A stretch of DNA of 6,021 bases from IMG/VR virus record IMGVR_UViG_2671180758_000013. One strand, 5' to 3'. Origin of the DNA: a virus (lineage: Duplodnaviria > Heunggongvirae > Uroviricota > Caudoviricetes). The translations under genes and the position numbers were made by a program. The notes under the pieces are model-generated. The model did no database searches and was not told where the DNA came from. It saw only the letters and a program-made list of their open reading frames with translations. Below are positions 492 to 3,009 of this stretch, in pieces; the first letter of the stretch is position 1, and each line of letters begins with the position of its first letter.

Positions 492-581
492 GCAGAATAT
501 TTTGCTGAAAAATGCGGTTTGCTCACACGGGCGGATAACACGAAATCCTGCGAACTGGCAAAAACTAAGTGAATAAAAGTA

Positions 582-619
582 AAACCCCGTTTGTTGGCCG
601 CAAGCGGGGTTTTGTGTTT
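582..619. terminator. Rho-independent terminator-like hairpin, possibly bidirectional
   Basis: AAACCCCGTTTG (582-593) pairs with CAAGCGGGGTTT (601-612) around a 7-nt loop, followed by TTTTGTGTTT. The reverse complement is also followed by a U-rich run (UUUUACUUUUAUU). Confidence 0.55.
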
Positions 620-685
620 CCTGACTCCGGAAAAGTCAAAGGAGAAAGTGTGTTTGATTTTAGCAAACTGATTCGGGAGATTCGA

Positions 686-787
686 ATGATGGCTGAAAAA
701 TTATCCACCTGGAAGTTCATCCTTATCTGGCTGGTGTTTGTGATTATGGCTTCCGGTTATTTCATTGGTCAGATACGCTGGTGGTGA
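686..787 (+). CDS. Hypothetical small membrane protein (33 aa; 45 aa if started at GTG 650), single predicted transmembrane helix
   Basis: GGGAGA (675-680) lies 5 nt before ATG 686; an alternative in-frame GTG at 650 follows GGAG (641-644). Product MMAEKLSTWKFILIWLVFVIMASGYFIGQIRWW has an 18-residue hydrophobic core. Stop TGA 785-787 is 1 nt before the Rz ATG at 789. Lambda has no gene at this position (from memory). No homolog recognised. Confidence 0.4.
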   Translation: MMAEKLSTWKFILIWLVFVIMASGYFIGQIRWW

Positions 788-788
788 A

Positions 789-1256
789 ATGAACCGCGTA
801 CTGTGCGTGGTCATCATTGCCCTGCTGGTGGCCTGTGGTGCGCTTAGTCTGGGGCTGAATCATTACCGTGATAACGCCATAACCTACAAAGAGCAGCGCG
901 ATAAAAAAGTCAGTGAGCTGGAGCTGGCAAATGCAACCATTACTGATATGCAGGTGCGCCAGCGCGATGTTGCTGCGCTCGATGCAAAATACTCGAGGGA
1001 ATTAGCCGATGCGAGAGCTGAAAATGAAACTCTGCGTGCTGATGTTGCCGCTGGTCGTAAGCGCCTGCGGATCAACGCCACCTGCTCCGGTACCGTGCGT
1101 GAAGCCACCGGCACCTCCGGAATGGATAATGCAACCGGCCCCCGACTGGCAGACACCGCTGAACGGGATTATTTCACCCTCAGAGAGCGGTTGATGACAA
1201 TGCAGAAGCAACTGGAAGGGGCACAGGACTATATCCGCACTCAGTGCCTGAAATAA
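789..1256 (+). CDS. Rz: Rz i-spanin (inner-membrane spanin subunit)
   Basis: 155-aa product MNRVLCVVIIALLVACGALSLGLNHYRDNAITYKEQRD...LEGAQDYIRTQCLK closely resembles lambda Rz (NHYRDNAITYK, RQRDVAALDAKY, DTAERDYFTLRERL, MQKQLEG), with an N-terminal TM segment. The track ORF 765..1256 begins at a TTG; ATG 789 matches the lambda N-terminus. Confidence 0.93.
   Translation: MNRVLCVVIIALLVACGALSLGLNHYRDNAITYKEQRDKKVSELELANATITDMQVRQRDVAALDAKYSRELADARAENETLRADVAAGRKRLRINATCSGTVREATGTSGMDNATGPRLADTAERDYFTLRERLMTMQKQLEGAQDYIRTQCLK
1009..1194 (+). CDS. Rz1: Rz1 o-spanin (outer-membrane lipoprotein), embedded in the +1 frame of Rz
   Basis: 61-aa product MRELKMKLCVLMLPLVVSACGSTPPAPVPCVKPPAPPEWIMQPAPDWQTPLNGIISPSESG has a signal peptide with lipobox (VVSAC), a proline-rich mature region and the C-terminal motif WQTPLNGIISPSE shared with lambda Rz1. 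It lies wholly inside Rz in another frame, as in lambda. Confidence 0.9.
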   Translation: MRELKMKLCVLMLPLVVSACGSTPPAPVPCVKPPAPPEWIMQPAPDWQTPLNGIISPSESG

Positions 1257-1516
1257 GTTTTGTTGATGCGCCGTATCGTCGCTGTATTCCCTCATTAACA
1301 GAGACCGCAGCCCGACAGGGAGACTCCTCTGCGCGAGTGTGCGGGGATAATCAAAAACGATACACACCGGGGTTTACCGCGTTAACGGAGCGCGGCGTTG
1401 TCCCCTCATAGTCGCCTGTCCGGTGCGATGGTGGAAGAAGCCGGATGTTTATCACTATTAATTGATGACACAGAAATGGATTCATTGAATTTCAGCACGT
1501 TTTTGTATTCGTGTTA

Positions 1517-1556
1517 TTGAACATCTGTTTATTTTACTTTTAACATATTGATAATA
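1517..1556 (+). promoter_or_regulatory. Candidate sigma70-type promoter in AT-rich island, upstream of small ORF 1607-1747
   Basis: TTGAAC (1517-1522) with TAACAT 18 bp downstream, and an extended -10-like TGATAATAA (1549-1557) about 50 bp upstream of ATG 1607. Pattern-based only. Confidence 0.2.
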
Positions 1557-1606
1557 AAAAGAGCTGTAAATCTTTAGATGAGTCGATTTTGTCCGGGGAA
1601 GTTCAA

Positions 1607-1747
1607 ATGGATTTTATGCTGACGGTTTCTGGTGTGGTTATCCTGTCCATTGCTTATACTGCAGATAAATATGGCTGCCATTTGTTATCACGTATTGGCG
1701 CTTATTGTTCGTTGATGCTGATTTTCTCGTCGCTTTTTTTTGAGTAA
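1607..1747 (+). CDS. Hypothetical small hydrophobic protein (46 aa, two short hydrophobic segments)
   Basis: ATG 1607 is preceded by GGGGAAG (1594-1600); stop TAA 1745-1747. Product MDFMLTVSGVVILSIAYTADKYGCHLLSRIGAYCSLMLIFSSLFFE. Below the ORF-track length cutoff; sits in the AT-rich island, convergent with the RHH gene. A 46-codon open frame in AT-rich DNA is only weakly significant. Confidence 0.3.
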   Translation: MDFMLTVSGVVILSIAYTADKYGCHLLSRIGAYCSLMLIFSSLFFE

Positions 1748-1879
1748 GTTATATTAATTATAACAAATAATTTTCTGTGTTATTTTTTCAGGCTATCCCG
1801 TCAGAGGGGAAGCCTGTACTGCCGGGGAGCGAATGGAAAACTGATGTGTCCGGTAACTGCGTGTTCTGTGAACACCATG

Positions 1880-2065
1880 TTACTTAATTATGTAATTCAT
1901 ACCCGAACTCTCTGTTGACAGCCTTCTTCTGCAGGCTTCAATAACCCACGCTGAAAAGTTTCCTGAACCTTTCAGATCAAGAGCGATGTTAATTTGTTCA
2001 ATCATCTGGTTTGGAAATCGGATGTTGCGGGTTGTTGTTCTGCGGGTTCTGTTCTTTGATGACAT
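1880..2065 (-). CDS. Small ribbon-helix-helix (Arc/MetJ-like) DNA-binding protein, probably YlcI/YnfO family (DUF3950), 61 aa
   Basis: Minus-strand ORF with ATG (complement of 2063-2065) 5 nt after GGGGAA. Product MSSKNRTRRTTTRNIRFPNQMIEQINIALDLKGSGNFSAWVIEACRRRLSTESSGMNYIIK has a basic N-terminal arm, a beta-strand (NIRFP), helix A, a G-S-G-N turn and helix B, the RHH pattern seen in Arc/CopG. From memory, similar small proteins sit near the cos-proximal right end of lambda and next to the Nu1 homologs of E. coli cryptic prophages (ylcI/ynfO); unverified here. Confidence 0.7.
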   Translation of the reverse strand: MSSKNRTRRTTTRNIRFPNQMIEQINIALDLKGSGNFSAWVIEACRRRLSTESSGMNYIIK

Positions 2066-2460: not shown

Positions 2461-3009
2461 ATGAAGGTTAATAAAAAGAGGCTTGCCGAAATTTTCAACG
2501 TGGACCCGCGGACGATTGAACGCTGGCAGTCTCAGGGACTCCCTTGCGCCTCCAAAGGTAGTAAGGGCATTGAATCTGTATTTGATACTGCCATGGCAAT
2601 TCAGTGGTATGCGCAGAGGGAAACTGATATCGAAAACGAAAAGCTCCGCAAAGAACTGGACGATTTGCGTGCGGCAGCGGAGTCAGATTTACAACCCGGC
2701 ACCATTGACTATGAACGCTACCGACTCACAAAAGCGCAGGCAGATGCGCAGGAACTGAAAAATGCCCGTGAAGACGGAGTAGTGCTGGAAACTGAACTGT
2801 TTACCTTCATTCTACAACGTGTGGCACAGGAGATTTCGGGGATACTTGTGCGTGTGCCGTTGACATTACAGCGTAAATATCCGGACATTTCACCATCACA
2901 CCTTGATGTGGTGAAAACTGAAATCGCGAAAGCCTCCAATGTTTCAGCTAAGGCCGGTGAAAACGTGGGCGGGTGGATCGATGATTTCAGACGCGCAGAA
3001 GGCAGCTAA
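2461..3009 (+). CDS. nu1: Terminase small subunit (lambda Nu1 homolog)
   Basis: 182-aa product begins [28 protein letters not shown]... (lambda Nu1: MEVNKKQLADIF...RTIQNWQEQGMP, from memory) and shares [32 protein letters not shown]. The N-terminal winged-HTH region differs at several positions from lambda. Confidence 0.93.

Follow-up and report, generated by a model that had tools for sequence, protein, structure and literature searches.

An AT-rich accessory island of lambdoid Escherichia coli prophages and its 46-codon gene for a predicted inner-membrane peptide

Does the AT-rich DNA between the lysis and the packaging genes of a lambda-like Escherichia coli prophage hold a functional gene, or an open reading frame (ORF) that arose by chance? 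The question is raised by a stretch of 6,021 nucleotides (nt) from IMG/VR record IMGVR_UViG_2671180758_000013 (Caudoviricetes), here called the window, which is the late-region junction at which lysis genes give way to DNA-packaging genes. An initial annotation, made from the sequence, described an AT-rich island at 1440-1879, and within it a 46-codon ORF for a small hydrophobic peptide that could equally be a chance open frame. Based on comparisons of island alleles and genomes combined with published expression data, we propose, with a probability of roughly three in four, that the island is a genuine mobile moron expressed in the lysogen and that its product is an orphan 46-residue inner-membrane peptide with two helices. 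The elements of the island and of its left border are the following, in window coordinates.

1266-1447, plus strand: conserved, GC-rich non-coding block of about 180 nt, the left boundary of a variable slot
1447-1855, no strand assigned: AT-rich accessory island, the insert common to all three alleles
1517-1561, plus strand: candidate promoter-like region, of which 1527-1561 is invariant between diverged alleles
1517-1522 and 1541-1546, plus strand: candidate -35 element TTGAAC and candidate -10 element TAACAT, 18 nt apart
1550-1555, plus strand: alternative candidate -10 element GATAAT
1595-1601, plus strand: Shine-Dalgarno (SD) sequence GGGGAAG, read from the sequence, 5 nt before the ATG at 1607
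1607-1747, plus strand: gene for the 46-residue peptide MDFMLTVSGVVILSIAYTADKYGCHLLSRIGAYCSLMLIFSSLFFE, with its ATG at 1607 and its stop codon at 1745-1747
1734-1741, plus strand: T8 homopolymer tract of variable length (T7/T8/T9), at the 3' end of the ORF
1748-1879, plus strand: weakly conserved 3' region lacking a convincing intrinsic terminator

Both the ORF, convergent with a minus-strand gene at 1880-2065 (ylcI/ynfO), and its SD sequence are present where the initial annotation had seen them. The peptide is identical to WP_000347013.1, i.e. ECs1538 of prophage Sp6 in E. coli O157:H7 Sakai and EDL933_RS08445 of strain EDL933, which the NCBI pipeline (PGAP/RefSeq) annotates as a hypothetical protein. 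Three island alleles are available for comparison: the window type, a type about 95% identical to it (loci L116-118) and a type with 76-81% identity (SHP24, L013 and L097). The ATG, the GGGGAA core of the SD sequence, the frame and the position of the stop codon are kept in all three, and not a single indel falls within 138 nt of the ORF, versus 10-16 gapped positions downstream. Between the window and SHP24, identity amounts to 63% in the left part of the island, 89% in the promoter-like segment 1490-1562 (with all 35 nt of 1527-1561 invariant), 68% in the leader, 83% in the ORF and 69%, with indels, in the downstream region, the neighbouring non-coding island DNA thus lying at 63-69%. The two ORFs are separated by 11 synonymous and 13 non-synonymous changes, equivalent to a ratio of non-synonymous to synonymous substitution rates (dN/dS) of about 0.31. 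The proportion of changed synonymous sites (pS, 0.337) matches the divergence of non-coding island DNA (0.31-0.37), and that of non-synonymous sites (pN) is 0.127; the synonymous excess is significant in a binomial test (p=0.017), with small numbers of substitutions behind it. Near-identical copies differ by four synonymous and one non-synonymous single-nucleotide polymorphisms, plus one change of ATG to GTG.

Expression of the gene has been recorded in the Sakai lysogen by Hücker et al. 2017 (PMC5597208), where ECs1538 is among the 250 shortest annotated genes. In lysogeny broth (LB) it reaches 57.6 reads per kilobase per million (RPKM) in RNA-seq and 26.1 RPKM in ribosome profiling (RIBO-seq), with a ribosomal coverage value (RCV) of 0.46 and a coverage of 0.98; the corresponding values are 32.7, 7.3, 0.23 and 0.81 in brain-heart infusion (BHI), and 2.1, 0.6, 0.29 and 0.13 in BHI under cold and salt stress (PMC5597208, S2 Table). 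The criteria for translation in that study were an RPKM of at least 1, a coverage of at least 0.5 and an RCV of at least 0.25, which the LB values pass. A transcript from the island, for which RNA-seq had been named as a check, is hence already on record. Nearby in LB, RNA stands at 8.4 RPKM for the holin gene, 10.1 for ECs1536 and 3.0 for ECs1537 (PMC5597208), the last of which corresponds to window 1247-1465 and overlies the conserved block. ECs1538 accordingly exceeds the upstream ECs1537 about 19-fold and the flanking prophage DNA 6-19-fold, and the step from 3.0 to 57.6 RPKM points to a transcription start between about 1465 and 1607. The same study lists a BPROM sigma-70 prediction for ECs1538 with a linear discriminant function score of 8.0, against a mean of 3.4, and an SD sequence 4 bp upstream with a free energy of -3.6. 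From the distances listed for the downstream XECs147 and XECs148, the BPROM promoter lies at about window 1546, in agreement with TTGAAC-18-TAACAT or GATAAT.

Downstream of the gene, plus-strand RNA continues at 38-50 RPKM over XECs147/XECs148 (PMC5597208), which span approximately window 1751-1915. Together with the lack of a terminator, this RNA suggests that the transcript of the island reaches into the convergent ylcI at its 3' end. XECs147 and XECs148 (1777-1887) were reported as RIBO-seq 'novel genes' in Sakai, in antisense overlap with the 3' end of ylcI (PMC5597208); as the diverged island allele does not conserve them, they more likely represent read-through of the ECs1538 transcript. 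The plus-strand ORF 1777-1887 (XECs148) is not conserved in SHP24, for which reason we rejected it as a gene, and the same applies to a minus-strand ORF of 35 residues at 1574-1681. An inverted repeat flanking the island (1465-1476 and 1772-1783) is likewise not kept by the SHP24 allele and was attributed to chance.

Several observations weigh against the gene, or against its status as a moron. Of the dinucleotide-shuffled versions of 1447-1879, 43% contain an ATG-initiated ORF of at least 46 codons (26% on the plus strand), and 14% of the longest plus-strand ORFs in the shuffles are at least as hydrophobic; the plus strand of the island is T-rich (AT skew -0.25 to -0.37), so hydrophobic ORFs are to be expected there. 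The promoter-like hexamers pointed out in the initial annotation do exist, yet a simple consensus scan found no excess of sites over shuffles and none on the plus strand upstream of the ORF. The substitutions relative to SHP24 are weakly three-periodic (8/6/10 by codon position), and the window differs from L116 by five non-synonymous and two synonymous changes. RIBO-seq reads are few (mean counts of 4-7 in BHI), and the non-conserved XECs147/148 downstream have about 70% of the footprint density of the ORF; RIBO-seq alone is therefore no proof of specific translation. In 1748-1879 only a weak hairpin (1861-1875) was found and no terminator is predicted in PMC5597208, so that the cassette lacks one classical moron feature, its own terminator. 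Finally, the peptide has no homologue outside E. coli and no family assignment, which makes any proposed function a guess. By themselves, the length and hydrophobicity of the ORF and the hexamers lack significance; it is on the comparative and expression evidence that the reality of the gene rests. Because of the dN/dS of 0.31, the kept start, SD sequence and stop, and the published RIBO-seq, we conclude from this comparison that 1607-1747 is a real coding gene, contrary to the view that it could equally be a chance frame.

The island in which the gene resides behaves as an accessory insert. Sliding windows over 1401-1900 gave a GC content of 0.345-0.375, in comparison with 0.53-0.55 at the left (1201-1500), and the island as a whole is at about 0.35, which bears out the AT-richness initially reported. 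The claim of GC-balanced flanks holds for the left side only, as the right flank up to the terminase gene Nu1, including the cos region, is also AT-rich (0.36-0.45) and the contrast is sharp on the left alone. The alleles of the window, SHP24 and L116/L117 are homologous from about 1447 to about 1855, a range slightly narrower than 1440-1879. A survey of 5,426 complete genomes of E. coli recovered the 440-nt region from 734 (13.5%), nearly all copies being at least 95% identical, and the exact protein sequence occurs in 14,746 blocks of an assembly index. E. coli chromosomes hold a 100% identical stretch, and O104:H4 outbreak strains 99.8% identical copies. Downstream of the island, lambda-type Nu1/A terminase genes were found in 74 of the loci examined, HNH and HK97-type terminase genes in 21, and in three (L116-118) the island has no DUF3950 (ylcI/ynfO) gene beside it.

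Presence and absence follow precise junctions. The slot lies between the conserved block (1266-1447) and the stop codon of ylcI: in phage 434 the block directly abuts that stop codon and the island is absent, BP-4795 has an unrelated filler of 170 nt in its place, and in DLP12 of K-12 the slot is occupied by ybcV and ybcW. Together with the occurrence in 13.5% of genomes and in at least three downstream contexts, this upholds the initial suggestion of a horizontally acquired insert, as does the deviant base composition (0.35 versus 0.53-0.55 GC at the left). Among IMG/VR prophages, homology breaks sharply after the terminal hairpin of the block, …GGAAGAARCCGGA (about 1441-1450; loci L001-L207), and at least seven unrelated sequences follow it. 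The break suggests a recombination junction or cargo slot, and the island would mark it as a recombination-prone site at the lambdoid lysis/packaging junction. The expectation that bor should have stood here proved imprecise. In 434, DLP12 and ColV plasmids, bor/iss occupies the interval from Rz to the conserved block, a position that is empty in the window (1257-1265), and the island sits on the far side of the block from Rz, in the ybcV/ybcW slot. The window does lack a bor-like ORF, as had been noted: tblastn with K-12 BorD, YbcV and YbcW found nothing there (for BorD, nothing better than E=2.5).

What kind of protein might the gene encode? The AlphaFold2 model contains helices at residues 2-22 and 24-44, at a predicted local distance difference test score (pLDDT) of 72, and an inner-membrane protein with two transmembrane helices is predicted for ECs1538 (PMC5597208, S9 Table). 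The sequence has no lipobox. Variation of the T tract touches the last residues only: T9 is found in 11 of 90 copies (peptide end ...LFF*) and T7 in 2 of 90 (longer tail), and the variation is mirrored in the protein clusters P0002 and P0006. Homology searches, another of the checks foreseen, returned no match in Pfam, PHROGs, NCBIfam or PADLOC at E<=1 and no relative among PDB sequences, and a word-indexed search together with exhaustive HMMER over 1.84 billion representatives retrieved E. coli alleles only. An invariant 34-mer had no exact match in a scan covering one genome per species, and no paper discussing the gene came up in the literature under its accession, its locus tag or the peptide sequence.

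We propose that the island is a self-contained accessory cassette in the variable slot, equipped with a sigma-70-type promoter of its own (within 1517-1555) and, behind it, with a leader of about 45-55 nt, the SD sequence and the gene. The lysogen would produce small amounts of the peptide, which would insert into the inner membrane as a helical hairpin, in which a short basic loop, ADKYGCHLLSR, would join two predicted hydrophobic helices (about 3-18 and 30-45) and likely face the cytoplasm according to the positive-inside rule. During lytic growth the ORF may also be read through from pR', since it has the orientation of the late operon and no terminator turned up in the DNA separating it from Rz, and the unterminated transcript would extend convergently into the 3' end of ylcI. 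Our best guess is that the product is a small membrane protein of lysogenic conversion that binds an inner-membrane protein of the host or of an incoming phage and modulates it; equally as a best guess, we favour a superinfection-exclusion or transporter/sensor-modulator type over a pore-forming toxin. A bolder version, which we hold to be improbable, is that the peptide is a new prophage membrane effector of superinfection exclusion or abortive infection with an inner-membrane target, its transcript doubling as an antisense regulator of ylcI/ynfO, a ubiquitous and uncharacterised gene; if true, this would couple lysogenic conversion to control of the packaging region at the cos junction.

Classical lambdoid morons include bor and lom of lambda and the gene for gp15, the superinfection-exclusion protein of HK97 (concept: Juhala/Hendrix, Cumby et al.). 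Like these, the island gene is present in some and absent in other syntenic lambdoid genomes, deviates in base composition, and probably has its product at the cell envelope; the published RNA-seq and the predicted promoter suggest that its transcription in the lysogen may likewise be separate from that of the late genes around it. Unlike them, it has no terminator of its own, and unlike the antiparallel bor it is co-oriented with the late operon. The peptide resembles neither Bor nor Lom in sequence, nor any PHROG family, and with 46 residues it is much smaller, predicted to be an integral two-helix peptide instead of a lipoprotein or outer-membrane protein; without BorD homology or a lipobox, it does not belong with Bor/Iss. 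The ybcV-ybcW pair of DLP12 shares the slot, the accessory nature and an uncharacterised function, but is unrelated in sequence (tblastn negative), has its two genes in opposite orientation in place of a single one, and encodes soluble DUF1398 and YbcW proteins, not a membrane peptide. ORFs at the right end of lambda are presumably the equivalents of ybcV-ybcW.

Parallels may also exist among the small membrane proteins of E. coli that regulate larger ones. AcrZ, MgtS, MgrB and CydX are core-genome proteins with a single transmembrane segment and known partners. The peptide resembles them in having fewer than 50 residues, a helical fold and a predicted inner-membrane location, as well as in its low expression in ribosome profiling, and differs from them as an orphan confined to E. 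coli prophages with two predicted helices. By this analogy, the most likely mode of action would be binding to, and modulation of, a larger membrane protein. The gene is otherwise an ordinary accessory gene, already annotated as a hypothetical protein and without any surprising property, and the practical gain is modest. Should a phenotype be found, one more prophage small membrane protein would acquire a known role, and with 46 residues it is easily testable. The carriers are medically important, comprising O157:H7 (Sp6/CP-933), O104:H4 and strains labelled as uropathogenic.

Three other explanations of the island must be weighed against a protein-coding moron. In one, the RNA is the functional product: an unterminated transcript antisense to ylcI/ynfO would act through transcriptional interference or pairing, and the ORF would be incidental. 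Such a role agrees with the promoter-like block being the best-conserved part of the island (35/35 nt), with the missing terminator, with plus-strand RNA over XECs147/148 into ylcI, with the weak codon-position bias of the substitutions and with the frequency of chance ORFs. We regard it as unlikely. Changes are about 2.7-fold rarer at non-synonymous sites than at synonymous ones and in the neighbouring non-coding DNA, the ATG, SD sequence and stop are kept without an indel in the ORF, and the lowest conservation (69%, with indels) is that of the putative antisense 3' part. Moreover, the ORF is kept in the allele of L116-118, where ylcI is missing downstream, and no stable RNA structure was seen in the island (z=-0.31), folds on both strands being no better than those of shuffles. 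Rfam scans (the whole window at E<=1; 1240-1900 at E<=10) gave chance-level matches only, and no known small RNA (sRNA) was accepted from them; the prophage sRNAs of enterohaemorrhagic E. coli, Pas, AgvB/AsxR and HnrS, were set aside as they are sited elsewhere, downstream of Q/pR' or in Sp9/10/12. That the island is instead a non-functional spacer, the remnant of an earlier insertion in which ORF, hexamers and low transcription are noise, is very improbable in view of the patterned conservation (promoter 89-100%, ORF 83%, background 63-69%), the synonymous excess (p=0.017), a module intact in three genomic contexts with its exact protein in 14,746 assembly-index blocks, and transcription 6-19-fold above flanking prophage DNA. 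It would nonetheless account for an ORF length, a hydrophobicity and promoter-like hexamers that are within chance, for the lack of homologues outside E. coli and for the rare frameshifted protein variants (P0008 and P0010), and AT-rich DNA is known to be pervasively transcribed.

The idea that a toxin-like peptide forms a module with a ribbon-helix-helix (RHH) protein, put forward in the initial annotation, is not supported. As a membrane-depolarising toxin, the peptide would either be of type I, controlled by antisense RNA, or be paired with the RHH-like YlcI. It is indeed small, hydrophobic and prophage-borne, and the type I toxins Hok/Gef, Ldr, TisB, ShoB, Ibs, DinQ and ZorO are likewise small and hydrophobic and sometimes encoded by prophages, the Sp6/CP-933 prophage of ECs1538 itself containing hokD. 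Its gene adjoins one for a putative DNA-binding protein of small size, and its expression drops under stress (PMC5597208). Unlike these toxins, however, it has two hydrophobic segments instead of one, and no family in Pfam, NCBIfam, PHROG or PADLOC matches it at E<=1, those of type I toxins among them. The leader is short, with no long structured 5' untranslated region, and no antisense or divergent gene for a complementary RNA was detected: direct or inverted repeats of at least 10 nt linking the leader or ORF to neighbouring DNA are chance-level 12-17-mers. A minus-strand hexamer pair at 1570-1542 has its -35 element TTTACA changed to ATTACA in SHP24 and its -10 element inside the invariant block. 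The ORF is covered by ribosomes during normal, exponential growth of Sakai, with no sign of harm. Neither obligate co-occurrence nor co-transcription, as expected of a type II toxin-antitoxin pair, is seen, as the genes are convergent and not operonic and each occurs without the other: ylcI without the island in 434, BP-4795 and K-12 DLP12, and the island without ylcI in L116-118. A holin or antiholin is not indicated either, given the lack of a holin match in Pfam or PHROG and the position of the ORF downstream of Rz, outside the S-R-Rz cassette; a class II holin is annotated upstream in related loci. We consider a toxin the least probable of these explanations and retain the lysogen-expressed moron as the preferred one.

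The remaining features of the window describe the surroundings of the island.

Up to 491: 3' part of the lysozyme gene
581-619, plus strand: strong terminator-like hairpin, AAAACCCCG…CGGGGTTTTGTGTTT, inside the late operon directly after the lysozyme gene
650-787, plus strand: small hydrophobic ORF of 45 residues, MFDFSKLIREIRMMAEKLSTWKFILIWLVFVIMASGYFIGQIRWW, between the lysozyme gene and Rz
789-1256: Rz/Rz1
1257-1447: GC-rich gap between Rz and the AT-rich island
1880-2065, minus strand: DUF3950 (YlcI/YnfO) gene, 61 residues, context outside the island module
Between the DUF3950 gene and Nu1: cos region
2461-3009: Nu1, followed by terminase A, W and the portal gene

The product of 1880-2065 matches Pfam PF13132 (E=9e-19, 67.5 bits at a cut-off of 25), NCBIfam NF041551 (35.2 bits at a cut-off of 30) and phrog_949. 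An RHH fold is plausible for it, based on a weak HicB-like PHROG match (E=0.012) and on a single-sequence AlphaFold2 model (pLDDT 58) in which an extended N-terminal segment precedes helices at 19-31 and 37-52. The PDB contains no sequence relative, and DUF3950 has essentially no literature. The gene is far more widespread than the island. Its annotation is inconsistent: the Sakai RefSeq record NC_002695.2 (locus L216, 16476-16565) presents ECs_1539 as a plus-strand ORF of 29 residues, and other records, as well as the older Sakai annotation, have the 61-residue minus-strand YlcI/YnfO gene at this site. On the lysis side, the ORF at 650-787 is the hypothetical protein WP_000459342.1, with a match to the function-unknown family phrog_6632 (E=8e-30); the hairpin at 581-619 precedes both this ORF and Rz.

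The conserved block at the left border is a more unusual object than the island itself. It is found in 4,145 of the 5,426 E. coli genomes, at up to 11 copies each, and in 398 phage records. Lambdoid phages that carry it are 434, BP-4795, Shiga toxin phages such as VT2-Sakai, and Salmonella ES18, among others, and it is partly present on iss plasmids. Its position is always between the lysis genes (or bor) and ylcI/cos or terminase genes. It is either unannotated or misannotated as an 'Rz-like spanin' ORF (phrog_6954, VT2-Sap50, ECs1537); we rejected the coding interpretation, as diverse copies carry stops in every frame and indels that are not multiples of three. Rfam has no match for the block. 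In an alignment of 47 distinct copies, 97.1% of cells are paired versus 36-60% in slid controls, compensatory changes occur in 12 pairs versus 2.9 in shuffles, the alignment having been fitted to the model, and one hairpin is formed by five different sequences, all pairing. The block is therewith a candidate multi-helix structured RNA on the plus, late-transcript strand, as judged from these sequence comparisons. A second RNAalifold run gave a different 3' domain, and the folding energy of the single sequence is unremarkable. In the Sakai lysogen the block is silent (RPKM 3.0), as expected for a segment of the late transcript. With copies in three quarters of E. coli genomes and no annotation, it is probably a better target for follow-up than the island. 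In one IMG/VR prophage (locus L031, 3007-4335), an insertion of about 1.26 kb, possibly an insertion sequence element, lies near the 5' part of the block.

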